64,000 bases of DNA from Candidatus Bathyarchaeota archaeon (GCA_963827165.1 CAWGZR010000004.1:1-64000); one strand, 5' to 3'; shown: positions 28,200-48,180, counted from the stretch's first letter. A program made the numbers and translations. The notes: generated by a model from the letters alone, not told the origin.

Positions 28200-28643
28200 G
28201 AAGTCATAGACCACACATCTTGACCCTAAATATCGACAATAGCGGATTGACTAGGCAAAAAAACATCAAGATACAATGCCTGAGGCAAAGGAGCTCCTGC
28301 GAAAAGTGCTTGGGTAGAACTGATTATTCGCAACAAGAGAATTTATTGGTTCTCGAAAGCAAGATTGCAACCTTTTTTGTACATATGTATCATATGTAAT
28401 CACCATGTATTTCACCAATAAAGGTTGGGAACTTGCCGAGAAAAACCAAATTTCCCCATTGATTTTGCAGAAGTTTAGCATAAATTTGCCTTCTGCCAAA
28501 ATAATTGCGTTTTCCAGTTTTGTGCCTAATTAGATTTAGGTGCTCGCTATCTCCACTTTTTGGCTAGAGAATAATAACGGCACAAAACTAAAACAAGGTG
28601 GAGAATAAAAAATACAGAAATGTTAGATTTGTTTCTCTTTAGT
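28200..28643 (-). repeat. Composite dispersed repeat, copy A (most complete)
   Basis: Aligns by eye with 45198-45390, 46180-46432 and 48002-48180; core ggtttttctcggcaagttcccaacctttattggtgaa..tacatatgatacatatgtacaaaaaaggttgcaatcttgctttc at 28447-28355. Confidence 0.9.
28519..28546. other. dif-like site (11-6-11)
   Basis: TTTGTGCCTAA TTAGAT TTAGGTGCTCG: TAA-N6-TTA core with imperfect inverted arms. Confidence 0.55.
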
Positions 28644-28850
28644 TTAATCTTTTTTGTCTAAATGGCTTATGAAAACTGGGCATTCTATGCATTGCTTTGT
28701 TGTGCATAGTTCTTCGGTAAATGGGCAGCTATGAAATATTTTTGCAAGATATTCGTTTAATGCCTTATTCTCTACTTCTTCAAAATCAAGTTTGGCGTTG
28801 CTAAGAAGTTGTCGAATTTCCCCTGTAGTTTTCTGAGTCATTTTGGTCAA
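28644..28850 (-). CDS. Small protein with C-terminal four-Cys motif
   Basis: CPFTEELCTTKQCIEC; stop lies beside the hairpin repeat. Confidence 0.55.
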   Translation of the reverse strand: MTKMTQKTTGEIRQLLSNAKLDFEEVENKALNEYLAKIFHSCPFTEELCTTKQCIECPVFISHLDKKD

Positions 28851-29381
28851 CTCTGCCTATTTTGATTTGCACCCTTTCTCTCTTTTCCTCGAGTGCATAT
28901 GGAAGCCTTCCCCTTCTTTTTGAGGGCCTTCTCTCCTTAAACAAGGCAAAACACAAAAAAGCATATAAGCCATATTTCCAAAAACGCAACATATCGTAAA
29001 CTAAGAAAGATTCTACAGCTTCAAGCCTTGAATCTCACAAGCGTTATCCCAAAGACCAAAAAATCAAACTAATAACGAAAAATTAAAGCTAAGTGATCTT
29101 TCAAAGCGTTATTACTAGCATAGTCACGACTAATCAGAATAAAAGTTACAAACATTGTGTTGACGCGAACGAGTTTTGGGGTGCGCCCTCAGAATTAAGG
29201 TTGAAAAAATAGCATGCGGTTTTTTTTATCTCACCTGTTAGTTTCAGAGTTAGGCGCTGATTTACCAGTGTGAATTTTGATTTGATATTCGTCGTCAGTG
29301 AACGTTTAGGTTTGGTCGGTCGATGGATGGTTTTTTAGCCAGTTTAAGGGAGGTTACATCAAGAGATGTTTTCGAATTGGG

Positions 29382-29789
29382 CTATTCTATCCAGATGGTT
29401 TCGGGCAGATTTTTAAAATGTTCGTCTCCGGTGATGATTTTGCTCTGGTTTATTCTAGCTGTGGCGTACACAATAGCGTCGAATAAGCTTGGAGTGTTTT
29501 GCTTGGAAATTTTTGCTTGTTGGTAGAGTTCTAGTTGGTATTTTGCTGCTTCTAAAGCTGTCGCTGAATCGATTTGAGTTATCACTGAGGTGGTTGTGAT
29601 TATTTCAAGCCACGTATTGATTGTTTTTTCATCTGTGCCTTCTCTGAGAAATTTTCTTGCGGTTTCGGCTAAAACTGTGCTGGGCGTATATACTTCTTCG
29701 GCGTTTTCCATTAGTTCTTTTACTTTATTTCCTTTTTCGCTACCTATTAGCAGCTCAATCCATGCGTATGTATCAATTACGATCTTCAC
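29382..29789 (-). CDS. vapC: VapC PIN-domain toxin
   Basis: IVIDTYAWIE, VLAE, SLFDAIV, ITGDEHF. Confidence 0.9.
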   Translation of the reverse strand: MKIVIDTYAWIELLIGSEKGNKVKELMENAEEVYTPSTVLAETARKFLREGTDEKTINTWLEIITTTSVITQIDSATALEAAKYQLELYQQAKISKQNTPSLFDAIVYATARINQSKIITGDEHFKNLPETIWIE

Positions 29790-29982
29790 CGCGATCTTCC
29801 TCGGAAAATGGTTTTATTCGGTTTTTGGCGATGCCAAATCCTTTGTCTAAAACTGCTTTACGCTGTTTCTTAACTAGTAATTTAATTGTTTCATCAATAT
29901 TTTCTGCGTTTAGCTTTTCGCGCAGGTGCTCAAGTGTTTTGGCAGTGTTCTTTGAAACCCGAATGGTTGTTGTGTCGTTCAT
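29773..29982 (-). CDS. vapB: VapB antitoxin (RHH-like)
   Basis: TTTIRVSK.T..L..DETI; overlaps vapC start. Confidence 0.85.
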   Translation of the reverse strand: MNDTTTIRVSKNTAKTLEHLREKLNAENIDETIKLLVKKQRKAVLDKGFGIAKNRIKPFSEEDRGEDRN

Positions 29983-30089
29983 AAGTAACCACTAACCATT
30001 TTTTAGTATACAAGTAGATAAGTATACTTGTTTTTTTTCACACTTAATCATTAGGCGCGCGAACTGTGATTCAAGTTTCAGACGTGGGT

Positions 30090-30240
30090 GTTGGCGATAG
30101 CTCAAAAGCATTAATTGCTGTACTTGACAGAATTGTTTTTTTTTCGTCTCAAGCTGGGTTACAAATTCAATCGACTCTTTGCGGTTTCTTAAGAAGTCTA
30201 TCAGTATGTCTGTGTCAATTATTATTCTGTCGGGACCCAT
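30090..30240 (-). pseudogene. Truncated, frameshifted VapC
   Basis: IIIDTDILIDFLR, then in shifted frame TILSSTAINAFEL; C-terminal half missing. Confidence 0.7.
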
Positions 30241-30368
30241 TTTTTCACGATTCGTTTAGTAAAAAATATGTTGAACAGGTACGCAATGCTTAACATGAAT
30301 TACGAAACAGAACGGACAATTCATAAGAAAAATAAACTGACTTCAAGATAACTCAATGCATATGCTGT

Positions 30369-30596
30369 GTGACCTTGATGACGATAGGTTTGGGATTCGT
30401 AATCACTGTTTGTGACTATGTAAATGGAAAAAGCGACAAAAGTTTGGATGAGATAGCGGAAAAAATATTGTCTAAGGTTCGCCCGGATGATTTGCAAGAT
30501 TTCTTTGAGAAAATCGCCTTGTTTAGTATCAAAAATAATCGATATCAAGAACTTAAAGCGAAATGTGAAACAATACTTGAATTGAAGCACAACTGA
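30369..30596 (+). CDS. Hypothetical protein or C-terminal fragment
   Basis: 75-aa protein-like ORF, no recognised motif. Confidence 0.3.
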   Translation: MTLMTIGLGFVITVCDYVNGKSDKSLDEIAEKILSKVRPDDLQDFFEKIALFSIKNNRYQELKAKCETILELKHN

Positions 30597-31645
30597 AATC
30601 GCCACAATAAAATGTTACATTCTAAAAGAATTAAACTTCACTTAGAGATGATTGAGTTAGGTCATTATAGTAACGAAAGTATTTACTCAAGACATCTTTA
30701 AAATTGACTTTTTATTGTCCAATTAATTAGATGGAAATTTGCGGGAACATCTATACTCCGATAGGAGCTTAATTTCTTTTTTAGGAGAATTATCATGAGG
30801 TCTTCTTTATCAAGTGAAACAATGATTGCTATTGTTTTATTAAGGTCGATCTTGTGATGGAGAGCTTCGATGCTGTATATGTTATATTCTAAGCAGAAAC
30901 AACAGTGCTTGAGGTGAAGAAAGGTGTTTTATACGACAGTGGATTAACATATTTTTGGGTTAAGTCAACAAATGAGGTCCATTTGTTTTCTTGGTTTCTG
31001 TTAGCTATGTTGAAGGGTAAGCTTATGTTTTTCGATGGCAAGAGTTCCCATGCTTCTTGGTAGATGTCTTGGTTCGGCGAGATTGAAAATTGGTTGGGAG
31101 ATTGATTAGTATTTCGGCGCATTTTTTGTTTTTATGTTCACCGGCTTTTAATGCGACGATAAGAACATTGGAATATAGAGTGAGAAGTTTACTTAGCACT
31201 ATTCATGTCGTCTGACCTGCGTGTTTCTTCTATTATGTAGGGCCGATATTCCATTTAGTTGAGACTGCGGTTTTTAGGTTTAGAGAGTTTTGTTGACACC
31301 AGTTTCAGTCTTAATTTTTTTTCTTCCTCAATCAGAGTCTCTTCATTGGTTATCATTAGTTCTGGATAATGATATTCAGTCCAGGTTTTAAGCCAAGTTC
31401 CACTTTTAACCGTTTTAGCTCTTTCAGCAGTTCTTGGGCGAGGTTTTAACGTCGAATTGTTGCCATTGCAGATCATCTATTTTTATGGTTATCCGGATTT
31501 AATCCAAAGTATAATTGTTTCTGGACACTTCAGCAGAAACAAACACTTGATTGCTTGTTCAGGCGAGCTGAACTCAAGTAAGCAGGCGTCGTAAGCCATG
31601 ATTTCGAGGGCAACATCGCTTCATGGTTGAAAAAATTTGCAATTG

Positions 31646-31770
31646 AAACGCCTACGTCACGGTTAGGTGCGCGTTATCTCCGTTTTAAACGGAGAATGAT
31701 AACGGCACGCAATTAAAAAAAGAATTAAGAAGAGAATAAAAATATAAACAGTTACACCGTTCTTTAGTTT
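31646..31770 (+). repeat. dif-like site plus bulged hairpin repeat, copy 2
   Basis: aaacgcctacg tcacgg TTAGGTGCgcgttatctccgttttaaacggagaatgataacggcac..gagaataaaaata..tctttagttt matches 28530-28645. Confidence 0.85.
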
Positions 31771-31968
31771 TTGGCGGTTTTGTTTTCGGTTTAAACTTCA
31801 GCTGCGATTTCTTCGATTGGCTTTAGCGGTGGCGTTGTAGCCTTCGTGTAGCCTATTCAGGCTCCTATTGCCAAGATAGCTATGAATCGGATGAAAACCG
31901 GTTCCTATAGGGCTCAACGAACAGTGCCGACTCTTATCCCTGACGGTATAGTAACTTATTGCTTGTTT

Positions 31969-32445
31969 TCAAAAATTCTTTAGGTGCATTACGTCAAATT
32001 GTCCTTTAGATTTTTCAAACAGCTTGTTGTCGGCCGTGATCAGTTGAGCGTCCATTTTGTTGCTGAGAAAAAGGTATGCGGCATCATAAACGGCAATTTC
32101 AATTTTGCAGGCTATCGCTAAAACCTGAGACGCTTCGGTCCAGGACAATTCGTGGAGATTCAACTCTGCGTTCTGCAAAAAATCTAGGGCGTCTTGAGCA
32201 TCCGTTTGTTGAATTCTCTTTTGTTTCGCGGCCAGCCATAAGGCATTTGCGGTTTCTTGTACTATAAATGAGGGAGCAAAGACTTGAATTGTCCCAGTTT
32301 GAAAGGTTGCTTTTAGTCTATTCGAATTTTCTTGGTATGTTTCGTCCGGCAGAATCCACTTCAATACCACGCTAGCGTCTAAGACATATTTGAGCGTGTG
32401 CTTGTCACGTCCTTCCTTCTCGAATCCAAGACAAAATTTCCTCAT
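31969..32445 (-). CDS. vapC: VapC PIN-domain toxin (true start probably near 32405)
   Basis: YVLDASVVLKW, ETANALW, AVYDAAY, LITAD.KL. Confidence 0.88.
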   Translation of the reverse strand: MRKFCLGFEKEGRDKHTLKYVLDASVVLKWILPDETYQENSNRLKATFQTGTIQVFAPSFIVQETANALWLAAKQKRIQQTDAQDALDFLQNAELNLHELSWTEASQVLAIACKIEIAVYDAAYLFLSNKMDAQLITADNKLFEKSKGQFDVMHLKNF

Positions 32446-32659
32446 TAGTTACCGGTTTTGACCTTTTTCTTATCTCATCGAGTTTGTCGAAGGCTTCTCT
32501 CTTTTTTTGTTCGTTTATTTTATTTTGCAAGCATTCTCGGATATATTGGCTCCAGTTAACATCAATTTTCTGCATATCATTCTTTAAGGCTTTAGGGACT
32601 CTCACGGTTATTACCACAACTTGTTCTTGATCGGCTAAGGCCATGACTTCATCTCCCAA
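32405..32659 (-). CDS. vapB: VapB antitoxin (RHH)
   Basis: VITVRVPK.LK..M..VNWS.YIR..WIREGR; palindrome ATTAATATATATTAAT upstream at 32680-32695. Confidence 0.88.
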   Translation of the reverse strand: MGDEVMALADQEQVVVITVRVPKALKNDMQKIDVNWSQYIRECLQNKINEQKKREAFDKLDEIRKRSKPVTNEEILSWIREGRT

Positions 32660-32796
32660 TTACCGTTATCGTATATAGCATTAATATATATTAATAAGCA
32701 TTATGTGCTGTATATCAAGCTGAGCAATTGAAGAGAAATCAACGCATCGATAGGTTAAGACGTTGTTATTGCGTCGATTCTCGCTGTGTTTCCGGT

Positions 32797-32860
32797 AAAG
32801 CGCCTCGTCACGTTTAGGTGCTCGTCACCTCTTTACTTTCAGAGAATAATTACGGCACAA
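32797..32860 (+). repeat. dif-like site plus bulged hairpin repeat, copy 3
   Basis: aaagcgcctcg tcacgt TTAGGTGCtcgtcacctctttactttcagagaataattacggcac. Confidence 0.85.
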
Positions 32861-33154
32861 AGACACACTCACTGCATCGCAAACAGCCTCTGCAAGGGCG
32901 CAACCGAGGCGGTCAGCACAATCATGCTATAATGTGCTCAGGAGAGTTTTTCCTATAAATTCAATCTGTTCAGACGTGACCTATGGTAAATTGACAGAGA
33001 AAACCTGCCTGGATAGCTTGGAGCTCCAAAGTTCTTTATGACATTGAGGCAGCAGCATGAAAGATTGGGGCTGTTTTTGATAGTTTTAACCAAAACTGAT
33101 AAGTGGTTAGTTTTTGTTTTTTGTTATCTAAATTTACTTTAGCGTTAGGATGGT

Positions 33155-34741
33155 TTGATGAGTAAAGCTGCGGATATGGCTAAGGCTTCTGTGAGGGGCG
33201 GTTTTCATGTTTTGTGGGGGCTGTTAGTTTCCACAATCATTTCAGCAGTCGGCGCAATCATCCTCGCTTTGGTGTTGGGCGAAAACAATTATGGCCTATA
33301 CGCTGTGGTTTTAGCGGCGCCAACGCTTATTGGGTTATTTCAGGATTTGGGAGTAAATTACGCGGTTACTCGTTATTCGGCACGGCTCAATGCCGAAAAC
33401 AAGGCTGCGCAAATAAGAAGCATCTTTCTGTCTGGGTTTATCTTCAAAACGTTGTTAGGCTTGGCGCTCTCACTTTTTTGTCTTTTGCTTTCGCCATATT
33501 TGGCGACAGCTGTTTTTCATCGCCCCCTTATTACGCCGCTAATTCAAGCGGTTTCATTCATTATTTTGGCGCAAGCCCTTGTGAACACTGCAACTGCCGC
33601 ATTCACTGGCGTCGAGAAAATGCACCTCAACAGCATTATGGTTGTAAGCCAATCAATCATCAAAACTATACTTGCGCCTGCACTGGTTTTGGTTGGTTTA
33701 AGCCTGTACGGAGCTGTCATGGGTTACACAATTGCCTACCTAATCACTGCAGTAATAGGACTCTTGCTTGCGTGGACAATCTACAAGAGTCTGCCGGGTT
33801 TAGTCTCGAATAAAATGGATCTCTTAAACGACATGAAAGTACTTCTTAGATTCGGATTACCTTTATCTTTTGGCGATATTATTGGGAGTTTTCTTACTCA
33901 ATTTTACACTTTTGTATTGGCTATTTATGTTGCTAACAACACTCTTATTGGAAATTACAATTTAGCCTCGAATTTTCTCGTGTTGATAACGTTTGTTTCC
34001 CAGCCGATTAATACTATGTTATTTCCAGCGTTCTCAAAACTTGACGCTGAAACTGAGCAAACAACGCTTAAAAACGTCTACCAATCCTCAGTAAAATATT
34101 CAACTCTTCTGGTTATGCCAGTCATAGCAATTATGATCGCGCTTGCAGGACCTGGCGTTTCAACAATATTTGGTCACCGCTATTCTCAAGCACCATTTTA
34201 CCTATCAATACTCGCCATCAACTACGTGTTCTTAGCCTTTGGCATATACAGCACAGGCAATTTAATCAACAGTCAAAACCAAGCCTCTATCAAAATAGTA
34301 CTTGTTTTAGTTACAGTAGTCATGGGCGTACCGTTGGGTTTAATCATGATTTCAAGATACGGCGTACTAGGTATGCTTATCACTCTAATCTTTGATGGTG
34401 TACCGAGCACCATTATTGGTTTGGTCTTCATAAAAAAGCATTACAACACGACCGTCGATTGGGTTGCGTCAGGAAAAATAATTCTATCCGCCTCCGTGGC
34501 AGCTCTCCTCGCCTACGTCGTCATTAAATTACCCCTTCCAAGCCTTATCCAGCTGATAATCGGCATAGTAATCTTCCTGCCGTCTTTCATAATGATGATA
34601 GTTCTAACAAGAACCCTCAGCAGAACTGACATAGTTAACTTACGGGAAATGACCAACAGTTTGGGACCATTGGGCAAACTAGTAAATACCTTGCTAATCT
34701 TGATAGAAAAGCTTATGACGATTACGCCGCGCTTTTCTTAG
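33155..34741 (+). CDS. Oligosaccharide flippase (Wzx/MOP family)
   Basis: About 14 TM; LG..NYGLY, DLGVN.AVTRY, LLRFGLPL, LFPAFSK. Confidence 0.85.
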   Translation: MMSKAADMAKASVRGGFHVLWGLLVSTIISAVGAIILALVLGENNYGLYAVVLAAPTLIGLFQDLGVNYAVTRYSARLNAENKAAQIRSIFLSGFIFKTLLGLALSLFCLLLSPYLATAVFHRPLITPLIQAVSFIILAQALVNTATAAFTGVEKMHLNSIMVVSQSIIKTILAPALVLVGLSLYGAVMGYTIAYLITAVIGLLLAWTIYKSLPGLVSNKMDLLNDMKVLLRFGLPLSFGDIIGSFLTQFYTFVLAIYVANNTLIGNYNLASNFLVLITFVSQPINTMLFPAFSKLDAETEQTTLKNVYQSSVKYSTLLVMPVIAIMIALAGPGVSTIFGHRYSQAPFYLSILAINYVFLAFGIYSTGNLINSQNQASIKIVLVLVTVVMGVPLGLIMISRYGVLGMLITLIFDGVPSTIIGLVFIKKHYNTTVDWVASGKIILSASVAALLAYVVIKLPLPSLIQLIIGIVIFLPSFIMMIVLTRTLSRTDIVNLREMTNSLGPLGKLVNTLLILIEKLMTITPRFS

Positions 34742-34918
34742 CGGTCGCTTGGGTAGTCTGGGACCCCTTTTTACTTTCGTTCTTCCTTTTTTATCTTCAA
34801 TTTCCGTAGGCCCACAAAAGTGAACCAGCATGAAAAATGCTAAGGCGTTAAACTATCTTATGATTCTTGTTTGAAATAGTCTCTTTAGAAAACATTTTTC
34901 GACACCGGTATTCCGTGA

Positions 34919-35170
34919 TTACTTTTTGATCTTTAAAGCTCTCAGATCTTGGACTGCGAAGACAGCAAGGAATACAAATAGATTAATATGGTTTAAGGGC
35001 GAGAACTATTAGCAAATTGCTGCACAAGAATCTATTCAATAAATGAACTTATAGAGGGTAAATGTTAAGCAAAAAATAACGCTGATGATAGTAATGCCAG
35101 CAAAGAAGGAGCGAAAAGAAGTTTCTTTTTTCAACACAGGAAAGACGTTTCAGATCCTCCCGAAGTATAC
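34919..35170 (-). pseudogene. Degenerate C-terminal fragment of YdjM-like membrane hydrolase
   Basis: DLKRLSCVEKRN..SNLLIVLAL..AVQDLRALKIKK* resembles the C-terminus of 40984..41634. Confidence 0.55.
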
Positions 35171-35178
35171 GACTATTC

Positions 35179-35679
35179 CTATACTATTAGAGCCAGCAAT
35201 GGTAAAAGCATCAGTATATTTCTTTTATCGACTGATAGAAGTCGCCGTAAATCTCCTGAGTACATAATGAGTCCTGCGGCTAGGACCAAGCCTGCTGTTT
35301 CAAGTGTAACATCGACAACAGAAGGCATACCAAAGCCAAAGCCCACAAGTTTGTAGCTGAACGGCCAGAAGATCATAACTTTTCCCATGATTAAGTCTCC
35401 GAAAGCAAAGTGCTGTACCACCGCCACGAAGTAGGGAATGGATTTTAAACGAAAAATAATGAAGAGTGGCACAAACAGGATGATCCAGAAGAGAAACGAA
35501 TGTGTAAAGGTGCGGTGCATGACTCCTATGCCTCCGAGAAGAAGATCTCCATCGGGCAAAATCCCAAGAAGCAGGATTAGGGGCACAATGAGCTTTCCTG
35601 TGCGTTTTACGCCGGGTATGAACGCCCAAGCTATCATAGCGAAAACATAGGCTCACATCATATGCCCAAGAAAATACAG
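35179..35679 (-). pseudogene. YdjM-like metal-dependent membrane hydrolase, copy 1 (nonsense, truncated)
   Basis: CTG-YFLGHMM*AYVF, LPDGD, HRTFTHS, HFAFGD; TGA at 35655-35653; 3' end lost. Confidence 0.75.
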
Positions 35680-36030
35680 TTAAAGCTCCTCCAACTTAGC
35701 GTCCGATCAGATGATAGCTGCAAAACAAGTAATCCTGCACCTTAAAAGCATATTGACACGCGGCCCCGTTAACCTCATAAGCCACATTTCAAAAAACTAC
35801 AAGGTGTCGCATCGACATGTTGCTTTAATCTCCGCTGAAAAATCTGTATTCAAAAGAATTTGATTTAAGCTTTGTCGGCGTGTTTAATGCTTTAAGCTGT
35901 TTTCGTCGAGTTTAGCACCATTTGGTTTTTAGGTTTTCTGCTTCTTTAAAATGGTCGTCGTCTGAAAAAAGGGAACATTCATAAATTTGGGCTGTTGCCG
36001 TAAAATGGCTGCAAGCTTTTTGTCGTCCTT

Positions 36031-38043
36031 TCAACGAGGATGACGTGTAGGTGTTGGAGTTGGCTTAGGAGTGGGTGTTGGTGTGGGTTTAGTTGTGGGA
36101 GTTGGTGTGGGTTTAGTTGTGGGAGTTGGTGTGGGTTTAGTTGTGGGAGTTGGCGTTGGGGTAAGTGTCGGACTTGGACTTGGAGTTGGTGAGGACGATG
36201 GCGTTGGCGTAGGGGTAATTGTCGGAGTCGGGATGGGTGTGGGTGTGTAGGTGGCGTATATGCTTGTGGTGGTTTGTTCGTATCCGGTTGGGGTTCCAAA
36301 AGTTGATGTATACTCGTTTGAGTAGGTGGTTGTTTTCCATGCGTGTGTGTTTGCGGTTGTGGAGCTCATTGTTCCTGTTGCTGATGAGCTGCTTGAGATT
36401 ATGCATAGCCAGTAGTATCCTGTGGTGAGGGTGCTTTGTGGGAGGGTGAATGTGTTCCATCCTGTTGTGGTGACTGTTTGGCTGCTGCTTTGGGCTATTA
36501 GGGTGTTTGGTGCGCCGTTGTTGTCTGTGTATATTGCTGCTTTGGCGCTAAAGCCTGTTGTGGTGAAGTAGGTTGATATGCTTTGAACTTGGCCGCTTTG
36601 GGTTAGTTGGAATCTGCTTGCATCCTTATCCGTACCAAAATAGTTGGTTAGCGACCCAACAGCTGTATCCCCAAAAGTACTTGATGTTGGAGTAGGCGTA
36701 GACGTAGGCTTAGACGTAGGCGTAGACGTAGGTACTGGAGTAGGTGTTGGTGTTGGGGATGGTGTTGGAATGGCTGTTGGGGTATAAGTGGCGTATATGC
36801 TTGTGGCGGTTTCCTCATATCCAGCGGGGGTTCCGAATGTTGACGTATATTCATTTGCGTAGGTGGTTGTTTCCCAGGCGTGTGTGTTTGACGATGTAGG
36901 TGTCATGGTGCCTGTCGACGAAGCGCTTGAGACTGCGCATAGCCAATAGTACCCAGCAGTGAGTGCAGTTTGTGGGAGAGCGAATGTATTCCAGCCGGTT
37001 GAAGAAACTGATTGGCTACCGCTTTGAGCGACTAGAGTGGATGGCGCACCATTGTTATCTGTATAGATTGCTGCTTTGGCGCTAAAGCCTGTGCTGGTGA
37101 AGTAGGTTGTAATGTTTTGCAGTTGGCCGTTTTGGGTTAGTTGGAATCTGCTTGCGTCTTTATCGGTGCCAAAATAGTTGGTTTCTGATCCAACTGCTGT
37201 ATTCCCAAAAGTAGCTGATGTCGGAGAAGGCGTTGGAGGATAGGTTGAGCCGAGATTTAATGCTTGATTGGTAGTTAAAACTCGAACTCCGCTGTTGGCG
37301 ATATAACTGAGTAAAGTGCTGAAGTCAGTTGTGTCTATTCCATACGGCAAATATGAAGCAACGTTCGCTGCAGGGACAACGTGGTGGAAAAAGATGATTA
37401 CCCAACTGTTTGTTGCTATGGCCTGATCTACTGCTGCTTCATCTTGCGATAAAGCTGTAGTGACACTTGCTGCTTCGCCTGCAAATCCCATGGGGATATC
37501 TGTTGAGGGCGATATTGGGTTTAGCCAGTTTGATTGATATGAGTATCGTGCTGACCTGTAATATTGAAGAACGATGCTGTCGGTAGTGCTGTTTGCATCT
37601 CCGTATGGGTAAGCAAAGTTTTTACCGGAAAGACCATTGGATTGAAGAAACTGTTGAGATTCACTACATTCCGCGTTAGTCTGAGCGGCAGTCAAATCTA
37701 GAAAGTCTGGGTGGTCAACGCTATGACTGCCTATTTCATTGCCGCTAGCCTGCAGGGTTTGAAGCTCTGGAACTGTCATGTACCCACTTGTTCCTAGAAA
37801 GCCAGTAATGACGTAGAACGTTCCATTCATTCCGTATTGTTGCAGTAGTGGATAAGCATTATCGAATTGGTCTTGGTTGCCGTCGTCAAAAGCGATCGTA
37901 ACAACTCCTGATGTTTGTTGCGCTTTTGTCAGTTTCACGGGTGAAAATATTAAAGTGCTTAGCATTATTAGAATAATAACTGTTATATACAATATTTTGA
38001 ATGATTTCTTCATTTTTTTCACCCTGCGAATAAAATTAATCAA
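36031..38043 (-). CDS. Secreted polysaccharide deacetylase (NodB/CE4) with two tandem C-terminal domains and Pro/Thr linkers
   Basis: Signal peptide, [26 protein letters not shown]; duplicated [31 protein letters not shown] domain. Confidence 0.88.
36049..36250 (-). repeat. Coding tandem repeats, about three 24-bp units (PTTKPTPT), within the PT linker
   Basis: tgtgggtttagttgtgggagttgg repeated at about 36082-36153. Confidence 0.85.
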
Positions 38044-39573: not shown

Positions 39574-40050
39574 AGCAACACCACAAAAACGAAAAAAATT
39601 TTACGTTTTCAACATAGTCCCAAGTTAGCATTAACTTCTCAAATAAAAATGTTATTTTGTGTTCACGATCACAGCTCAAAGTCCACATCGCCCAATCACA
39701 ACCAAAATATCCTTCTTATCTAAAAACATCATTAAAGCTCTCAACATTCTCTCTCCAGCGCCTTTTTCATCTTTAAACATATTAAACAACAAAAGCCATA
39801 TAGGCGATGCTACAAAAACCGCAATATATCTAAAAAACACAGTTAAACTTCTATATTCAAGCAGCACGGTCAGATCAAATATCTTAGCCGTTTAGCGAGA
39901 AGTTTAGCCCACGCATAAGCCGAAGCGGGGGAAACCAGGTCTGCATCTAACCTGTGAACTGCCCCACCATGATAGAGTGATTCATACGTGCAAGAATCGG
40001 GTCGGTCACAATCCTTACAAGTTTTATAATTTATAACGTTCTTAAGGATC

Positions 40051-40853: not shown

Positions 40854-40983
40854 GTGATTAACCCTAAAATGTATACATTTCGAATACATATATATCTTAT
40901 CCAGAAACTCGTAATCTTTAATCCACATCGTGTACGCGTCCAAATATTCGCGCCATCGACCTATTTTCTGTAATAGTTTGATA

Positions 40984-41657
40984 CTAATTCGGCGATTTTT
41001 CTCTCGTTTTTGGGGGTCTTAATCCTTGAAAAGTCGACGCCACCAAGAAGGCAACCAAGATTAAGTGCCCTATCGCTAAGATAATTAGCAAATTGCTCGA
41101 CGAAACATAGTCAAATAGCGAAGTCACGCCGCCTAGGTGAAAATCGAAGTACAAAGCTGATACTATTAGAGCCAGCAATGGTAGAAGCATCAGGATATTT
41201 CTTTTGTCAACTGATAGAAGTCGCCGTAAATCTCCTGAGTACATAATGATTCCTGCGGCTATCGCCAAACCTGCTATTTCAAGGGTTACATCGACAATTG
41301 AGCCCATGTTAAAGCCTAAGCCGACGAGTTTGCTGCTAAGGGGCCAGAAGACCATAACCTTTCCGATTATTAAGTCTCCGAAGGCGAAGTGCGATACAAC
41401 TGCTACAAAGTAGGGCAGGGATTTTAGGCGGAAAACAATGAAGAGTGGCACGAATATGATGAGCCAGAAGAAAAATGAGTGGGTGAAAGTGCGGTGCATG
41501 ACTCCTATGCCTCCGAGGAGAATATCTGAATCGGGCAAAATCCCAAGAAGCAGTATTAGAGGTACAATGAGCTTTCCACTGCGTTTTATGCCAGGTATGA
41601 AAGCCCACGCGATCATAGCAAAAACTAGGCCCACGCCATGTGTCCGAGAAAATACAG
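40984..41657 (-). pseudogene. YdjM-like metal-dependent membrane hydrolase, copy 2 (1-bp deletion near start, or sequencing error)
   Basis: CTG-YFLGHMAWA, frameshift, then VFAMIAW..LPDSD, HRTFTHS, HFAFGD; highly similar to 35179-35740 including upstream DNA. Confidence 0.7.
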
Positions 41658-42033
41658 TTAAGGCTCCTCTCCAATTTAGCCTTTGATCAAGTGATATTTA
41701 CAAAAGCAAATAATCCTACGGTTTAAACAAGTTTGGAACCCCTGAGGAAATAAAAAAAGAACTTGACAAGCTCAGCATGAAAATGGATAAAGCAGCGTAC
41801 GATACGAGGTTTTTACAAAAAGAGTGATGGTTTAATCTTGGCCTGCAAGCGAGCCAAGCAAATACTGAATTGCTATGGTCTGTAAAAGGTTTTTTTGGTG
41901 TTGTCCTTACATTTGCTTTCTATTCCATAAAATCCTATTTCAGGAGAGAACAGTTAGATTTTAGATATTAAAAGGCGGGAGTATAAGTTAGGATTGTGGA
42001 TTCTTAAAGGTTAAATGAATATTCATTTGATAA

Positions 42034-43836
42034 GTGCACATGCAAAAGAGAAAAAATATAAACTTGCTATTTAGGTTCTTGAGTAAAAGTGCTACTCCGC
42101 TCAAGATTATACCTTCAATTTTATTGTTTTTATTGCTTTTTGCAGCGTTGTTAACGCCGCTGAATGCTGCGCTTAGTCCAGCTAGGGATTTGACTGGAAC
42201 ATGGCAAAGCGCTTTATCTGAAAAGTACTATGAAATGGATCCTTCTGACCCAAACACGCGGATGAATGATGTAAGCGTAACATATACTATGATTATAACT
42301 CAAAGCGGTAACTCGATAAATATAGTATTGAACGTTGAAGAGTCAAGTTGGGTCACTGATAGTGCATACTGGAATGAGTACGGCATGTCTGGTGTTCCTC
42401 CAGTTGGATTTAATCAAATTGGGCTTTCTGGAACGGTTTCAAGCGCAAGTTTTGCCGCTGACGAGCAAGGCGCAAGCACAGGAAACGCGGAACATTTAGC
42501 TGGAACATTTACCACCGACATCATAACAGCAACCCTTACGGGTCCATACGAAACAACCGATACCAATGGCTTAATCGTGTTGCGGTCAGGCTCATCAGCC
42601 ACTATGCCGCCCACAGCAACTTCAGCCCCGACTCCCACACCCACACCAGCGCCTGCCCTGCCAACATCAGACAATTTAGGCAGCGTTTCACTAGTTCAAG
42701 GTTCAGCGTGGTTTGCAGACACTGGCGCAGCAGTCACCACTCAAAGCACAGTGGGCACAGGTGCAGAAATCAAAACGGGCAGCGATAGCAATACAATCGT
42801 AGGTTTCAATTATCCCGATCAAGTCGGAACAGTGTACTTAGGTGCAAACTCCGATGCAGGATGGGTGTATATTGAGCCGCAAACTGACCCAATAACTGGA
42901 AACACAAGTTATGCTGTAGTCCCACCACCTTCAGGTTCTTTTCAATATAGCGAGGGGATAGACCCTTGTGAGTTTGGTCAAGCCGGATTGCAGCTTTCAA
43001 TAGAAGTAGGCATAGGACTTGGGGTTATGCTGGTTACCGGAGCGCCATTATCCTTAGGAGGCGCATTGGTTGTGGAGGGAACAATATTGCTGGGAACAGG
43101 CATCGCATATATACATGAGCAGTTTTCTCCGCAAGAAGGAACCTATGACGTGAGACCTGTTCAGGTGCCACAAGGATTAGTTATGGGTAATGGAACCGAT
43201 GATTATGTCGTGACCGTTTCCAATGAATCGACAACAATCCAAGTCATAGACGGCTCAGTTATATTCGTCGATCAATACACCAACAATACGATAACCGTGC
43301 AAGCGAATCAGATGCTGATGCTTCCCTCTGGAGTACCAACGGGCTTCAGCAACCTTGACCTCCAATCTCACTTATCCGCCTATGATGCATCTTCAATGAA
43401 CCAATGGTGGATACCAACCGCTACTGCTGCACCATTGATTGCCACCGCGTCGCCGACAAATCCAGTGACAAATCCGGCAACTAGCAACAACTCGAATCTT
43501 CTGTTTCAACCTAATTTTTTGGCGCCTCTCATTATGGTAATAGCCTTCGTGCTAGCCGGGATATTCCTCACCGTACGAAGAAAACAAACCCGAAAGCCTC
43601 GCATATCAAGCAAAAAGACAGCTGATCAAAGTGGCCCGCAACAAATCACGAATGAACCCCAGAAACCAACAATGCAAACCACCGAAACAATACCTCCGCC
43701 GCCTAACGAACTAAATACTACTCAATCGAAGGCTGTCTTCTGTCCCAACTGCGGAAATCAACTTCGAAACGCCTCAAAGTTCTGCCCATCTTGCGGCTCA
43801 GACCTAAGCCAATGGTTCACAAATGCCAAAAAATAG
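42034..43836 (+). CDS. Membrane-anchored protein with FecR-like extracellular domain and cytoplasmic zinc ribbon
   Basis: Signal/TM, IKTG..S..VYLGANS, VPQG..GT..VV.V..T.IQVIDGSV..V.ANQ, TM, FCPNCG..FCPSCG. Confidence 0.7.
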   Translation: MHMQKRKNINLLFRFLSKSATPLKIIPSILLFLLLFAALLTPLNAALSPARDLTGTWQSALSEKYYEMDPSDPNTRMNDVSVTYTMIITQSGNSINIVLNVEESSWVTDSAYWNEYGMSGVPPVGFNQIGLSGTVSSASFAADEQGASTGNAEHLAGTFTTDIITATLTGPYETTDTNGLIVLRSGSSATMPPTATSAPTPTPTPAPALPTSDNLGSVSLVQGSAWFADTGAAVTTQSTVGTGAEIKTGSDSNTIVGFNYPDQVGTVYLGANSDAGWVYIEPQTDPITGNTSYAVVPPPSGSFQYSEGIDPCEFGQAGLQLSIEVGIGLGVMLVTGAPLSLGGALVVEGTILLGTGIAYIHEQFSPQEGTYDVRPVQVPQGLVMGNGTDDYVVTVSNESTTIQVIDGSVIFVDQYTNNTITVQANQMLMLPSGVPTGFSNLDLQSHLSAYDASSMNQWWIPTATAAPLIATASPTNPVTNPATSNNSNLLFQPNFLAPLIMVIAFVLAGIFLTVRRKQTRKPRISSKKTADQSGPQQITNEPQKPTMQTTETIPPPPNELNTTQSKAVFCPNCGNQLRNASKFCPSCGSDLSQWFTNAKK

Positions 43837-43950
43837 CCATTACCTCGCTACGTTCCCTTTTTCTTTATTATGTGGATAACCAGATAAAAAATGCAATAAA
43901 AAAATTCGTTGATCTTTCCGGTCCATTTTTGCTCTTTAACCATTGGCTTG

Positions 43951-44367
43951 TTAGGGACATCTAATTTGATCTTTGTATATTGTGCGCTCAAGCTTTTTGG
44001 ATAGTTTTGTATCGAGTGTTAGGAACTGCAGATCTAATTTATTTGCAAGTGCTATGAAAGCAGCATCGTACACAGTGATGTTCAACTCTAACGCTTTGTT
44101 CAATGCATCAACTATGACCTCAGAGAAACTATGAACCGCGTAAAGATTCATCATTTTTTCAGCTTGTTCGAAGGCCTCAGTAGCATCCTTTGTGTCGAAT
44201 TCGCCGGATACTTTATGCGTTATAGCATTGGCTACTTCATAGAAGCTTAAGTCCAATATGTGGAAATACTCATACTCTTGTATAATTTTTGATGCCCATT
44301 CAGAGTACTTCTCAAGCGTAACTAATGAGGCGATTACAGATGAGTCAACGACGACTTCAATGGCCAT
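43951..44367 (-). CDS. vapC: VapC PIN-domain toxin
   Basis: VVVDSSVI, YEVANA, TVYDAAF, LTLD.KL. Confidence 0.9.
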   Translation of the reverse strand: MAIEVVVDSSVIASLVTLEKYSEWASKIIQEYEYFHILDLSFYEVANAITHKVSGEFDTKDATEAFEQAEKMMNLYAVHSFSEVIVDALNKALELNITVYDAAFIALANKLDLQFLTLDTKLSKKLERTIYKDQIRCP

Positions 44368-44590
44368 GGTCTCGATCTTCTCTGGTTATATCTGATGAGG
44401 ACTTTGTGATTCCGGTTTTTTTGCCCAACTTGTTCCTAAACAACTCAGTTTCCTTTATGACCTGCTTTAATTTCTCCGCCTTAACCCTTCTTTCAAGATA
44501 TTCTCTGACATCTTCTGCATAATTTACATTCAATTCTCGAAGTTCATCTTTGAGTTTCTTGGGAACTCTGATGGCTATTACATCGCTCAT
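44357..44590 (-). CDS. vapB: VapB antitoxin (RHH)
   Basis: MSDVIAIRVPKKLK..VNYAE.VR..REDRD. Confidence 0.88.
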   Translation of the reverse strand: MSDVIAIRVPKKLKDELRELNVNYAEDVREYLERRVKAEKLKQVIKETELFRNKLGKKTGITKSSSDITREDRDHGH

Positions 44591-44779
44591 AATTAACATT
44601 TTAGTAAACAAATTATTAAACACATTGTTAACAAAAAAGTAAACTTGACGAACTCTTCAAAAACAATTCCGCGAGCATGTTTGCAATTTGCGTGGTTGAA
44701 TTAAGCTTAGAAATAGGGATTTAATTTGTTTGGATATAAAGCTTATATTTTCCACAATGGGAATTTTTATGGTGGGAAA

Positions 44780-45034
44780 ATGAGCATAGAAGATGTAACT
44801 ATTGACCGCAAAGGGCGGATTCAAATACCAAAAGCGGTTCGAGACAAAGTCGGTTTACAAGTTGGAGGAAAAGCTCGCCTGAAAATAGAGAGAGAAAACA
44901 TAGTTATCATGCCGCCAATTTCACCTGAACAATTCATTCAGGAAATGGAAGGCTGCATTAAGGAAGGCACACCCACCATGGATTCACTGAAGCTAAAGAA
45001 AATGTGGGAACTTACAGAAAAACAAAGTGAATGA
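44780..45034 (+). CDS. AbrB/MazE family antitoxin
   Basis: VTIDRKGRIQIPK.VR.K.GL..G. Confidence 0.88.
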   Translation: MSIEDVTIDRKGRIQIPKAVRDKVGLQVGGKARLKIERENIVIMPPISPEQFIQEMEGCIKEGTPTMDSLKLKKMWELTEKQSE

Positions 45035-45200
45035 ATGCTATTCGTTGATTCCGACATATGGTGCTAACTTTGATCAGCACCTTTCTGAACACATGCCTGT
45101 CCGGGCGCCATGCGGGAAATCATTAAATCCGAAGAAATAGTCTGCAACTCTGTTATTGTGATGGAAGTGGCGCATTACCTTATTAGGCATTTCACAGCTC
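45035..45200 (+). pseudogene. VapC pseudogene, truncated at repeat copy B
   Basis: MLFVDSDIWC*, frameshifts, NSVIVMEVAHYLIRHF, then the repeat begins. Confidence 0.7.
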
Positions 45201-45390
45201 GGTAAAAATAGGTTTTCTCGACAAGTTCCCAAACCTTATGGTGAATTGCACGGTTATTACACATGATACATATGTACAAAAAAGGTTGCAATCTTGCTTT
45301 CAAGAATTTCCTCTTAAAACGATTAAATCGGGTCTTCATTTCGTGAGTTAATTTCAGGAAATTTTTGCCTTAGGTATTGCGTCTTGCCAT
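45198..45390 (+). repeat. Composite dispersed repeat, copy B (core plus tail)
   Basis: ggttttctcgacaagttcccaaacc..tacacatgatacatatgtacaaaaaaggttgcaatcttgctttcaagaa..tttgccttaggtattg. Confidence 0.88.
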
Positions 45391-45503
45391 TTTTTTTCTT
45401 CGTTTATTTGACTGTTTCTTTTGCTTAGTTGCCTCTCATCTTTCGCCAAATGGTGCTACTAATTGGTGGGAAAGTATAAATTTAAGTTGGATAATCTTAC
45501 TTA

Positions 45504-45767
45504 TTGGTGTCCAAGATGGCTCGCAAAAATGTTGGCCAAAAAGGTCAGTTAGTTATTCCTAAGCAATTAAGGGATGCGATAGGGCTTAAGCCCGGTGTCG
45601 AAGTAATTTTAGAAATCAGGGGTGACGAAATAGTCATAAGCAAGCCAAAAATCGAGGGCAGTTACACAGAATATTACACCACAACACACACCCCAAAACT
45701 GAAAAAAGTTGTCAACCTCAAAGAAATAATTACTGAAGAGGTATCCCAAAGACATGCAATACCTTGA
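45504..45767 (+). CDS. AbrB/MazE family antitoxin
   Basis: VGQKGQLVIPK.LR..GLKPG. Confidence 0.9.
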   Translation: MVSKMARKNVGQKGQLVIPKQLRDAIGLKPGVEVILEIRGDEIVISKPKIEGSYTEYYTTTHTPKLKKVVNLKEIITEEVSQRHAIP

Positions 45768-46164
45768 TTCTAACGTATTTCTGTACTCCGCATTATACTC
45801 GCCTACTTCAGAACCAAAAGCAAAGAGAGCAAAGGAAATGCTCCAAAAAATAGAAAATGGCGAGATAACTGCAGCGACGTCTACCTTGACATGGGATGAA
45901 GTTGTTTGGGTAGCAACCAAACTGTTAGGCAGAGCTGACGGAATAGCCCAAGGACAAAAACTACTTGGTTTCCCAAATATAGAATTTATAAATGTAGATG
46001 AAGGAATAATCGCTCAAGCTCAAGCACTTATGGCGAAATACAAACTTAGCCCACGCGATTCAATCCACGTTGCATCAGCACTTAGCAAAAAAACCAAAAC
46101 AATAGTAAGCGACGATGAAGACTTTGATCAGATTAAAGAAATCAAGAGAATACCACTAAAATAG
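45754..46164 (+). CDS. vapC: VapC PIN-domain toxin
   Basis: YLDSNVF, TWDEV, PRDSIH.ASA, IVSDDEDFD. Confidence 0.92.
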   Translation: MQYLDSNVFLYSALYSPTSEPKAKRAKEMLQKIENGEITAATSTLTWDEVVWVATKLLGRADGIAQGQKLLGFPNIEFINVDEGIIAQAQALMAKYKLSPRDSIHVASALSKKTKTIVSDDEDFDQIKEIKRIPLK

Positions 46165-46179
46165 GGCCACCGTGACTTA

Positions 46180-46432
46180 ATCCTTGTTTTAACTATAGGC
46201 AGCTATCAGTTTCCAACAAAATGGAGTTGGCAAGCAACTAAGCCTAATTAGGCACTGAGAGGGAAAGGCAATTATTCTCATAGATAGAGCTTTACTTTAA
46301 GCTTTTACAAAATCACTCGGGAAAATCCTGGTTTTTCTCGGCAAGTTCCCAACCTTTATTGGTGAATTGCATGGTGATTACATATGATACATATGTACAA
46401 AAAAGGGTTGCAATCTTGCTTTCAAGAACCAG
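46180..46432 (+). repeat. Composite dispersed repeat, copy C (decayed hairpin, dif-like site, core)
   Basis: dif-like CAAGCAACTAA GCCTAA TTAGGCACTGA 46231-46258; palindrome TACATATGATACATATGTA 46379-46397; colinear with reverse complement of 28600-28347. Confidence 0.9.
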
Positions 46433-46571
46433 AAAACTCGTTTTCATAATAAGCAGCGTAACTTCTGCACCATTTGGGCACACAATTGGATCGGAATTTT
46501 ACCCTGCCTTTTTCTCTACGTCATATGGCAAGTTTAAATGAGTGAATGTCCCACTATGTACTGGTGGGATA

Positions 46572-46814
46572 ATGGATATTACGCTAAAAATAGATGCAAA
46601 AGGCAGACTTTGCATTCCAGCAGACATAAGGGAAGAAATCGGAGACACGGCCACGCTTAAAAAAACATCCGAAGGCTACCTTATAATCCCCGGCAAACAA
46701 GAAAATTTTCTGAAAGAATTCCAGAAAATCATCGAATCAAAACACAAGAGAACAGGAAAACCGGAAAACTGGTCTCCAGAAAAAATGAAGTCAATCTGGA
46801 GCCAAACTGAATGA
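46572..46814 (+). CDS. AbrB/MazE family antitoxin
   Basis: KIDAKGRLCIPADIR; TCCCAC/GTGGGA inverted repeat upstream at 46549-46569. Confidence 0.85.
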   Translation: MDITLKIDAKGRLCIPADIREEIGDTATLKKTSEGYLIIPGKQENFLKEFQKIIESKHKRTGKPENWSPEKMKSIWSQTE

Positions 46815-47245
46815 TTTTTGGCCTAGATACCAACATAATTTGCTATGCCTTGGATGAAGAATACCCTGAACATAAAAAAGCGAGCAATTTGCTCTTAAAT
46901 TTATCCGCTGAAAACAAAATTGCCCTAAACCCAACCACAATCCATGAAACATATCATACGCTTGTTTTTGGGCAAAAATGGATCCAACAAGACGCTGCTG
47001 AAACACTAAGAATGCTGCTAAAGCATCCGTACATTAAATTTCTAAATCAGACATTGCGAATCACAACAATTGCTCTGACCCTGTCTGTCAAACATGGGCT
47101 CGGCGGAAGAGATGCACTCATAATTGCCAACTTCTTAGTAAATGAGGTACCCATCATGTATACTCACGATAGGGAAATCTTGAATATTCAAAAAATCTCG
47201 TGGAAAAACTTCAATTTAACATTCAATGATCCCCTAATAAAGTGA
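46811..47245 (+). CDS. vapC: VapC PIN-domain toxin
   Basis: GLDTNII, IHET, GRDALI, YTHD. Confidence 0.88.
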   Translation: MIFGLDTNIICYALDEEYPEHKKASNLLLNLSAENKIALNPTTIHETYHTLVFGQKWIQQDAAETLRMLLKHPYIKFLNQTLRITTIALTLSVKHGLGGRDALIIANFLVNEVPIMYTHDREILNIQKISWKNFNLTFNDPLIK

Positions 47246-47361
47246 ATCGATACACCAAGCTAGAGACTGTTCTAGCTTCTCGTCCATTTTCTGTTTTTCT
47301 TTTTTGCATAATGCGGGAAAGCTTTTATTTTTCATTACTCATCTTTCATTCGTGATGTAAC

Positions 47362-47598
47362 ATGAAGGTCGTACAAACAACCCTTACAGAAGCGGAACAC
47401 AAACTCCTCGAAGAATACGCAAAAAGAAACTCAAAGAGCATCAAGGAAGTTCTACGTGAAGCTATCAAGAATACAGTCGAAGGCAACGTCAACCCGAATG
47501 ACCCTATTTTTACAAGCCCACCCAGTTCCAGACGAACCGGAAAAATAGATCATGGCTCAGAAGAACATGACAAGTTTCTGTATGGTGAAAATACTTGA
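47362..47598 (+). CDS. CopG/RHH antitoxin
   Basis: VVQTTL...EH.LL..YA..SI.EVLREAI; C-terminal SEEHD..LYG. Confidence 0.85.
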   Translation: MKVVQTTLTEAEHKLLEEYAKRNSKSIKEVLREAIKNTVEGNVNPNDPIFTSPPSSRRTGKIDHGSEEHDKFLYGENT

Positions 47599-47999
47599 TA
47601 TTTGTAGATACAAGTGCATGGTACGCCCTCGAAGTAGAAGATGATGTGAATCATGAAACGGCATACAAGTTCCTTTCCACGTTAGCCTCGGGAAAACACG
47701 GTATTTCCGTAACAACCGATTATATACTTGACGAAACGCTCACTTTGTTAAGGTCAAGAAGAACCCTTTCTGCAGCCTCCGCCTTTATGGATAAGATAAA
47801 GAAAAGCAAGAGTGTTCGCGTATTCTGGGTAGAAGAAGACTTATTTGAAAAAGCACTCGACATGTTCAAACGATCTGATCTCAAATCGTGGAGTTTCACA
47901 AACTGCACAAGTTTTGCCTTGATGAAAGATCTTTTAATCCCTAACGCATTCACATTTGACAGCCACTTTAGGCAAGCTGGCATTCAAATGCTCCCTTGA
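47595..47999 (+). CDS. vapC: VapC PIN-domain toxin (one conserved Asp appears as Asn, SFTNC)
   Basis: IFVDTSAW, TDYILDET, SFTNCTSF, FTFDSHF. Confidence 0.88.
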   Translation: MIFVDTSAWYALEVEDDVNHETAYKFLSTLASGKHGISVTTDYILDETLTLLRSRRTLSAASAFMDKIKKSKSVRVFWVEEDLFEKALDMFKRSDLKSWSFTNCTSFALMKDLLIPNAFTFDSHFRQAGIQMLP

Positions 48000-48001
48000 C
48001 G

Positions 48002-48180
48002 CCAACCTTTCCCGTAGAAAAAAATTGCAATCTTGCTTTCGAAAAAATAAATCCTCTTATTGTGAGTAATCCGGTCTACCCACGCACTTTTCGTAAGAAC
48101 TCATTTGCCTCCTGCATTGGTTTTTTGCCTCGCCGATCCCACCATTGATGTCATCAGGTCTCGGATGCTTGTCGTATTGA
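48002..48180 (+). repeat. Composite dispersed repeat, copy D (central palindrome deleted, tail retained)
   Basis: ccaaccttt..gtagaaaaaaattgcaatcttgctttcg..tctacccacgcacttttcgtaagaactcatttgcctc matches reverse complement of 28430-28200. Confidence 0.85.

Follow-up and report, generated by a model that had tools for sequence, protein, structure and literature searches.

The 64,000-nt stretch analysed here (the window), from a Candidatus Bathyarchaeota archaeon (GCA_963827165.1 CAWGZR010000004.1:1-64000), contains a small, decaying example of a gene array in which toxin-antitoxin (TA) units are separated by copies of a bulged hairpin site. Three good sites lie on the minus strand (28.5-32.9 kb), together with a degenerate stretch on the plus strand. 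In other genomes of the genus the site recurs in arrays, usually in a single orientation, and homologous units between the sites lie in differing neighbourhoods. We propose that these are integron-like cassette arrays with a lineage-specific site and a recombinase that would act in trans; we put the probability of this reading at about 0.55, and infer the recombination itself from sequence comparison. An original prediction, made from the window alone, had instead centred on a composite repeat of ~400 bp carrying a dif-like site. It correctly took the locus for a piece of a TA-rich cassette array, a piece that we find to be decayed.

We built a covariance model of the hairpin site, R1, from 13 copies. 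The site is a bulged hairpin of ~50 nt (5' arm GTGCCGT..., 3' arm ...CGAGCAC) that ends in GCAC-CTAAA. About 25 conserved, A-rich bases precede the hairpin, and CTAAA is followed by about six variable bases and a short TAYGC box, such that conservation spans ~25 nt upstream of the stem to ~17 nt downstream. Scanning 38 stretches fetched from 17 genomes, together with the window, gave 127 sites with their flanks. RNAalifold on the 13 copies predicts a stem of 14 pairs with one bulged base on the 3' arm and a short loop; across 111 copies, pairing holds in 94.9% of cells of the lower stem and in 76.2% of those of the upper. Covariation scores 0.150 against 0.135 in shuffles, a value that 0 of 500 shuffles reach, and drops to 0.027-0.081 when the pairing partners are slid. 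Fixed G-T/G-U pairs occupy two positions (84/110 and 71/110 sequences), so the fold is strand-specific and favours the strand shown. As single-stranded DNA, the best-folding window copy, H2, folds with −15.6 kcal/mol (z = −3.45), and H1 has no exceptional stability (z = −0.38). Searching the window against Rfam gave no family at its gathering threshold. The window also lacks a tRNA gene, and thus an attachment site of the tRNA type.

Two further properties were considered for the site and dropped. An outer helix resembling the R box of attC was not established, with pairing in 64% of cells for GTAGTT/GACTAC and 56.9% for TTAG/CTAA. Nor are the sites homogenised within a genome, since sites compared over the 3' arm and core have an identity of 0.722 within and 0.696 between genomes, which is no real difference.

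With the covariance model, the site was found in 48 of 120 genomes of the genus, in 1 to 26 copies each, and in many of the genomes it occupies two or more loci. In the remaining 72/120, some of which are assembled on 1-3 contigs, the model found none. A class-wide draw of 151 genomes contained only two with the site, namely the genome of the window and one weak case from a sister genus. The window's genome has five sites, four in the window and one on contig C5; the predicted clustering of copies therefore holds, with four of the five inside 18 kb, although two good copies (H2 and H3) and the C5 copy had been overlooked. Of the 20 fetched contig stretches, 18 have every site on the same strand; the exceptions are the window (3 minus, 1 plus) and genome G116. 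Spacings range from 256 to 20912 nt, many of them 660-1800. Groups of at least two co-oriented sites less than 4 kb apart, a criterion quoted in a published survey of integrons (PMC9668308), occur here, in the window as the minus-strand sites at 28528, 31655 and 32806. A pattern scan of metagenomes returned 45 contigs with an exact match, and all five contigs with two copies have them co-oriented, 849-1394 nt apart. Viral contigs held no exact match to the pattern.

The genes between the sites are dominated by TA pairs. As predicted, the pairs flanking the repeats are TA modules of the VapBC type, in which Pfam recognises a PIN toxin and an AbrB/MazE-like or ribbon-helix-helix (RHH)-like partner; the window has, from 29.3 to 48.0 kb, seven VapBC pairs that are intact and one that is decayed. 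Gene maps give the typical order of a unit as antitoxin, PIN toxin, site. We tallied by hand the Pfam-annotated neighbours among our own, crude open reading frame (ORF) calls. Among 119 nearest upstream ORFs, 66 matched Pfam; half of these (33/66) are PIN or PIN-like, and 31 of the 33 are co-oriented with the site. MNT nucleotidyltransferases are all opposite to it (6/6), and the rest include NUDIX, HicB, UPF0175/RHH and glycan genes. The median distance from the stop codon of a co-oriented gene to the site is 83 nt. Larger units in four genomes carry D5_N/DUF5906 primase-helicase genes without an integrase and look like plasmid- or virus-like elements that use the same site. Other units carry a module of a TFIIB-like zinc-ribbon protein, a helix-turn-helix (HTH) protein, a 155-182-aa protein and a protein that we call X. 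The arrays are located within or beside glycan-synthesis islands.

Examples of the D5_N/DUF5906 genes are L040:2882-4891 (G124) and L046:14703-17258 (G029). A Cys-rich protein of 61-68 aa also recurs (window 28644-28850, minus strand; G136, L044:5426-5623; G135:C7:543568-543753). It has a weak TFIIH C1-like match (E = 0.002), and in the window and in G136 it directly precedes a hairpin site.

Evidence for cassettes comes from comparing the window with 19 array stretches from 16 other genomes of the genus (143 units and flanks). None of the 22 cassette pairs that are homologous between genomes is collinear. For 20 of them, no homologous neighbour is present at ±1 or ±2; the two remaining pairs neighbour one another, with their order swapped. 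One unit of ~1 kb occurs in four genomes, each time with different neighbours. Between G029 and G132, five blocks of 88-99% identity are permuted while keeping the same orientation relative to the sites; three block ends fall 14-19 nt past a CTAAA anchor, and two block starts fall 72-76 nt before one. These two genomes also have in common a 99.7% identical unit with its hairpin, and diverge after CTAAA. Conversely, G124, G113 and G103 share sequence from CTAAA onward and have different hairpins. Pairs that are homologous only upstream of the site show raised identity to about +9 to +13, and pairs that are homologous only downstream show it from about +17, so that in the averaged profile the switch falls between about +9 and +17. 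The comparison shows hairpin-bounded units that have apparently moved independently of one another.

In the mechanism that we propose, units would be exchanged by site-specific recombination, with the hairpin as the point of attachment. The recombinase, whose gene would lie elsewhere, would release a unit in circular form and reinsert it at another copy of the site. The hairpin would for the most part remain with the unit upstream of it, and positions from about +6 to +17 would accompany the downstream one, as in an integron cassette.

A series of observations weighs against this proposal. Individual junctions place the break just after CTAAA, but other homologous pairs break in the loop or ~48 nt upstream, and the break points do not coincide at one nucleotide. 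Homologous recombination between repeats could give the same picture. A strand-specific fold would also suit an RNA, and two of the three good window sites fold no better than shuffled sequence. Gene orientation is less uniform than in integrons, with 51 of 66 annotated neighbours co-oriented with the site; in the crude ORF calls as a whole, 72 are co-oriented and 48 opposite, and seven sites have no ORF. Among the contigs of four public runs, we saw neither an excised circle nor an empty site, and none of the 45 metagenome contigs has matching ends. Finally, no recombinase is evident for the site: in the five genomes searched, a PF00589 gene was found neither in or beside the arrays of G012, G124, G136 and G029 nor on the window's contig.

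Eight public runs from two soil studies contain part of the stretch, with a best share of 0.32. In one variant contig, 31547-31655 is replaced by 99 other letters. The contigs of the four runs compared show no joint at a hairpin site, which weighs neither for nor against excision.

The alternative that fares best has the hairpin as RNA or protein-binding punctuation, that is, a 3' stem-loop or a processing or termination signal of the upstream operon, with the units reshuffled by homologous recombination between repeats of ~100 nt. The position of the site shortly behind the stop of a co-oriented gene would be expected of such a signal, and so would the co-orientation of nearly all PIN genes with it and the fixed G-U pairs that favour one strand; the scatter of break points over the element also fits. 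Yet the site keeps one orientation per array even where its neighbour is reversed, as for 15 of the 66 annotated genes, the six MNT genes included. The ~25 nt before and 17 nt after the stem that are conserved exceed the needs of a stem-loop, and the window matches no Rfam family at threshold. Moreover, the sites are confined to a few islands and do not track TA operons, with five in the whole of the window's genome. We therefore regard the punctuation hypothesis as unlikely, and prefer cassettes bounded by a recombination site.

The original prediction favoured Xer recombination: the core would be dif, or a XerA site derived from dif, and the units would be pdif-like modules or elements piled up at the chromosomal dif. 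A dif site is present once per chromosome, is conserved among close relatives, and consists of imperfect inverted repeats of 11 bp around a 6-bp spacer (PMC2958812). The cores of copies A and C of the composite repeat do form an 8-6-8 inverted repeat with a TAA-N6-TTA centre. The string CTAA-N6-TTAGGCAC occurs twice in the window (28522-28539, minus; 46238-46255, plus) against 0.31 expected, although 6 of 100 shuffles also have at least two. Across the 127 sites, the right arm scores slightly above random 8-mers (median 3 vs. 2 of 8). The units carry no recombinase of their own, and we confirm the absence of one from the window, which the original prediction had noted; a strong tyrosine recombinase match lies elsewhere in the genome (C10:392923-393384, 88.8 bits), and the one-contig genome G003 has a single site.

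The dif-like palindrome is nonetheless not a conserved property of the site. The median is three of eight complementary arm positions, at least six of eight are complementary in just 3/127 sites, copy A among them, and an 11-6-11 arrangement mostly reaches 3-4 of 11. A site that occurs at two or more loci in many genomes, was not found in 72 of the 120 of the genus, and has so poor an inverted repeat does not behave as a chromosomal dif. The 14-bp hairpin would be superfluous for a dif, and the sites are direct rather than alternately inverted. G012, which has 26 sites, contains only weak PF00589 matches (at most 33.5 bits). A Xer/dif origin of the arrays is thus quite improbable.

PF00589 genes exist in all five genomes searched for recombinases. 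Where they share a contig with an array, they are separated from it by roughly 70 kb (G012), 140 kb (G136) and 240 kb (G124). No IntI exceeds the TIGR02249 cut-off of 265 bits in any of the five (best 47.9), and a serine recombinase was found only in the window's own genome, on another contig. A fuller version of the cassette hypothesis can be formulated from here: an archaeal cassette-capture system independent of integron integrases, whose genus-specific folded site would border hundreds of mobile TA and accessory units and would also be the landing pad of plasmid- or virus-like elements without an integrase, and whose recombinase would either not be recognisable by sequence or be a repurposed host enzyme. 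We advance this version tentatively, as one that we would not expect to hold in all its parts.

We next consider the composite repeat from which the site was first noticed. Each copy was run by blastn against the entire genome (3.13 Mb on 14 contigs), and the profile scan that had been suggested as a check was carried out with nhmmer. A four-way alignment bears out four homologous segments at the places and in the order described, with B, C and D mutually direct and A inverted. Identity by blastn is 81.7% over 229 nt for A/C (E = 9e-54), 89.5% over 95 nt for A/B, 82.6% over 109 nt for A/D and 87.6% over 113 nt for B/C. The profile recovered the same four copies and two weak partial matches (31650-31723 and 32789-32863); neither method found a further full copy on any of the 14 contigs. 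The full repeat is restricted to the window and a few genomes (5/61), and only its hairpin part occurs generally. The idea that all ~400 bp form a functional unit was not borne out. The repeat is not one element but three parts: a hairpin site, a long palindrome and the decayed C-terminus of gene X.

The last of these parts was identified through G020, where the repeat DNA runs on into an open frame on the opposite strand. The C-terminus of this G020 protein matches the window with 54.8% identity over 31 aa (tblastn; E = 5e-5, at 28216-28308), and the remnant of copy A contains two in-frame TAG stops (E = 5.2e-4 in a second search). Because the open frame in G020 matches the window across in-frame stops, we conclude that the tail of the repeat is decayed coding sequence. 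The description of the copies as non-coding hence fails for the tail, and a decayed coding sequence was among the outcomes that the original prediction had itself listed as speaking against it. The tail of copy B does not match the X protein significantly (tblastn, E = 3.7); that of copy D was assigned to X by its DNA similarity to A and by one frame that, judged by eye, resembles the C-terminus of X.

Intact X genes encode 138-167 aa and were found in 26 of the 120 genomes, often as several copies plus fragments in each. X matches no Pfam or PHROG family, and its 99 relatives are all unnamed or 'hypothetical', some of them labelled Bathyarchaeia. The AlphaFold model is of good quality (predicted local distance difference test, pLDDT, 87.4) and all-helical, and has no fold match in the PDB at E ≤ 0.001. 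X was considered as a recombinase, for which Pfam and PHROG gave no match, and as an RHH regulator, a guess that the all-helical model refutes. It was not found in the array-rich genomes G012, G029, G124 and G132.

The boxes ggtttttctcggcaag... and ggttgcaatcttgctttc pair with each other as arms of a single long palindrome centred on TACATATG-ATA-CATATGTA. It folds far better than shuffled sequence (z = −3.66 on the minus strand, −5.53 on the plus strand), and the consensus fold of seven copies has 31 pairs, five of them with compensatory changes. The palindrome sits between the X stop and the hairpin in G020, G086 and G129. In G135 and G085, however, the hairpin is only ~15-20 nt from the X stop, and the palindrome is therefore optional. 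Its centre is the truncation point of copy D and of one G020 copy (contig C31). Possible roles are a terminator of X or a further point of recombination or insertion.

We suggest that the 400-bp repeat would be the recurrent start of one unit joined to its site, in the order site, 80 nt, long palindrome and 3' end of a reverse-oriented X, and that this start may have been copied or truncated several times through rearrangement. For the window itself the outcome is thus more modest: the repeat would be a rearrangement scar that contains one hairpin site. One could go further and suppose that nothing here is functional and that the copies are leftovers of local duplication and of the decay of X and its downstream flank. 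The pseudogene tail agrees with this, as do the lack of a hairpin in B and D, its degenerate state in C (30.7 bits) and the narrow distribution of the full repeat. It suits the 400-bp repeat, but not the site inside it, and leaves the hairpin arrays of 48 genomes, with their single orientation and independent neighbourhoods, unexplained; we consider it very improbable for the site.

How do the arrays compare with known systems? Sites of the attC type carry an R'' motif (RYYYAAC) at the 5' end and an R' motif (GTTRRRY) at the 3' end, which pair at the base of the hairpin. This pair is missing in all 127 copies, on either strand, and therefore we do not file the site as attC. In 25/127 sites there is only an inverse-core-like word after the stem; the stem of ~14 bp, the short loop and the conserved CTAAA outside the stem set the site apart further. 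The Vibrio superintegron is a chromosomal array of near-identical, structured VCR repeats with many TA cassettes, which are thought to stabilise it. Here TA pairs dominate, PIN genes alone making up 33 of the 66 annotated site-adjacent genes, and neither an integrase nor an attI is known.

The pdif modules of Acinetobacter are likewise small, often TA, and flanked by short recombination sites for a host enzyme in trans, but these XerC/XerD sites are oppositely oriented and lie on plasmids. The sites described here are direct (one strand in 18/20 stretches), chromosomal and hairpin-bearing, with poor inverted repeats. Integrative mobile elements exploiting Xer (IMEX), such as the CTX phage, integrate at dif through the host Xer proteins, and the CTX site is a folded single strand. 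Shared features are the stacking of integrase-less elements at a site, a substrate that could be built by folding of a single strand, and D5-type primase cargo, which here lies between sites without an integrase; the arrays differ in that the site is not the chromosomal dif and that most units lack replication or virion genes.

Repetitive extragenic palindromic (REP) sequences and bacterial interspersed mosaic elements (BIME) are short hairpins behind genes that are dispersed genome-wide and are associated with REP-associated tyrosine transposases (RAYT). A selfish repeat of this kind, or of the miniature inverted-repeat transposable element type, spread by an IS200/IS605- or RAYT-style transposase (enzymes that recognise hairpins) and landing behind genes by chance, would account for the hairpin, for the short conserved motif 3' of its foot and for a semi-conserved upstream TTAG that could pair with CTAA, but is hardly credible given copies that are clustered and co-oriented, a TTAG/CTAA helix paired in little more than half of cells, and the lack of the Y1 transposase PF01797 in all five genomes searched (the control was positive in 6 of 14 known genomes).

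The closest parallel remains the integron. Integrons, and clusters of attC sites without an integrase (CALINs), have been reported in archaea only through canonical attC sites found with bacterial models (PMC9668308, Ghaly et al. 2022). They resemble the present arrays in having short units, co-oriented imperfect-hairpin sites with a bulged base, common TA units and mostly no adjacent integrase, as well as homologous units in unrelated neighbourhoods and a hairpin that mostly travels with the upstream unit. They differ in that here no IntI passes the cut-off (0/5), gene orientation is less uniform and the site is essentially confined to one genus. Some of our arrays may overlap CALINs already counted in the survey. 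Searches of the literature on archaeal integrons and attC cassettes, Bathyarchaeia integrons and archaeal vapBC cassettes turned up no description of such arrays among the records listed.

Gene capture through site-specific recombination is classically exemplified by integrons. If the cassette hypothesis is true, a second, lineage-specific site that follows the same array logic with a different sequence and without IntI would imply that cassette platforms evolved or diverged on more than one occasion, and surveys based on attC models would overlook them. The very large and variable complement of VapBC pairs in Bathyarchaeia would then also have an explanation. The site would offer a short, well-defined DNA substrate with which to look for the enzyme.

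Two genomes with a lone site bear on the ends of arrays. In G003 (one contig), an epimerase gene lies on one side of the site (L004:1501-1546) and a reverse 162-aa gene on the other; a homologue of the latter (57% identity) follows the last site (L045:9571-9628) of the 13-site array of G136. The two may represent an empty and a filled landing pad. As a conserved anchor after the last site, the 162-aa gene was rejected, as it recurs there in G136 only. In G035 the lone site (L003:1500-1545) has a MarC gene on one side and, on the other, a homologue of the membrane-protein gene next to copy D; the likeness was judged by eye against the window genes at the right border (48227-48655 and 49530-49994), and hints that the right end of the window's array is at a conserved chromosomal place.

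The features of the window are collected in Table 1. Read along the minus strand, the order is H3, a VapBC unit, H2, a 3-kb unit, H1, the long palindrome and the X remnant; H3 and H2 are spaced by 1151 nt. An 11-kb glycan cluster with two further PIN pairs separates this array from the plus-strand stretch (44.7-48.2 kb), in which B, C and D separate four TA pairs, one of them decayed, and which retains one degenerate hairpin only. Copy B does begin where a vapC is cut off, as had been claimed: the PIN N-terminus there contains three in-frame stops and ends at 45199.

Table 1. Features of the window, with positions counted from its first nucleotide; R1 is the covariance model of the hairpin site.
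Feature	Position	Strand	Basis
Copy A of the composite repeat	28200..28643	-	Alignment, blastn, nhmmer
Decayed C-terminus of gene X, tail of copy A	28213..28311	+	tblastn with the G020 X C-terminus
Long imperfect palindrome, ~110 nt; 'mid box' pairs with 'tail box'	28345..28450	-	Folding
Core read earlier as dif-like (GCACCTAA-N6-TTAGGCAC); left arm is the hairpin's 3' foot	28522..28543	-	6/8 arm positions complementary
Hairpin site H1, inside copy A	28528..28590	-	R1, 71.3 bits
H2-H1 unit with small minus-strand ORFs, among them a VapBC pair and the 68-aa Cys-rich ORF	28644..31654	-	Pfam, gene map
VapBC pair in the H2-H1 unit	PIN 29382-29789, partner 29773-29982	-	Pfam
Hairpin site H2, best-folding copy	31655..31715	-	R1, 74 bits
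VapBC cassette between H3 and H2	31969..32659 (PIN 31969-32445, partner 32405-32659)	-	PIN E = 2.7e-8
Hairpin site H3	32806..32865	-	R1, 65.5 bits
AbrB/MazE-type antitoxin gene (44726-45034) and PIN pseudogene	44726..45199	+	Pfam, translation
Copy B: long palindrome and diverged X tail, without hairpin	45198..45400	+	Alignment, blastn, nhmmer
VapBC pair	45504..46164	+	MazE_antitoxin E = 2e-10, PIN E = 2.5e-19
Copy C, contains degenerate hairpin site H4	46180..46470	+	Alignment, blastn; R1, 30.7 bits for H4
Hairpin site H4, degenerate, within copy C	46190-46249	+	R1, 30.7 bits
Two VapBC-type pairs (46542-47245, 47362-47999)	46542..47999	+	Pfam
Copy D: right half of the long palindrome and X tail (coding sense on minus)	48002..48180	+	82.6% to A over 109 nt

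Within the glycan cluster, a direct repeat of ~500 nt (35181-35691 and 41160-41669, 82-84% identity) extends over two YdjM-like paralogues. In contigs of runs X1 and X2, position 41669 is joined back to 35719 through 25 other letters, which suggests a tandem, circular or rearranged form of this 5.95-kb piece of the cluster in the population. The same region encodes a 670-aa polysaccharide deacetylase (36031-38043, minus strand) whose gene has long runs with a 12-nt period and two internal repeats of ~300 nt; GC content rises to 0.50 here, with a strong GC skew. On the other side of the array, a run of plus-strand genes (19046-28080) that resembles a defence island ends at the X remnant of copy A. 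It includes a 1454-aa PD-(D/E)xK nuclease plus superfamily-1 helicase, a ParB_N-like protein, an ABC-type ATPase and several unknowns, with an HTH gene (23452-23898) on the minus strand within it. A related ATPase gene, the similarity being judged by eye, adjoins an X remnant on contig C60 of G020.

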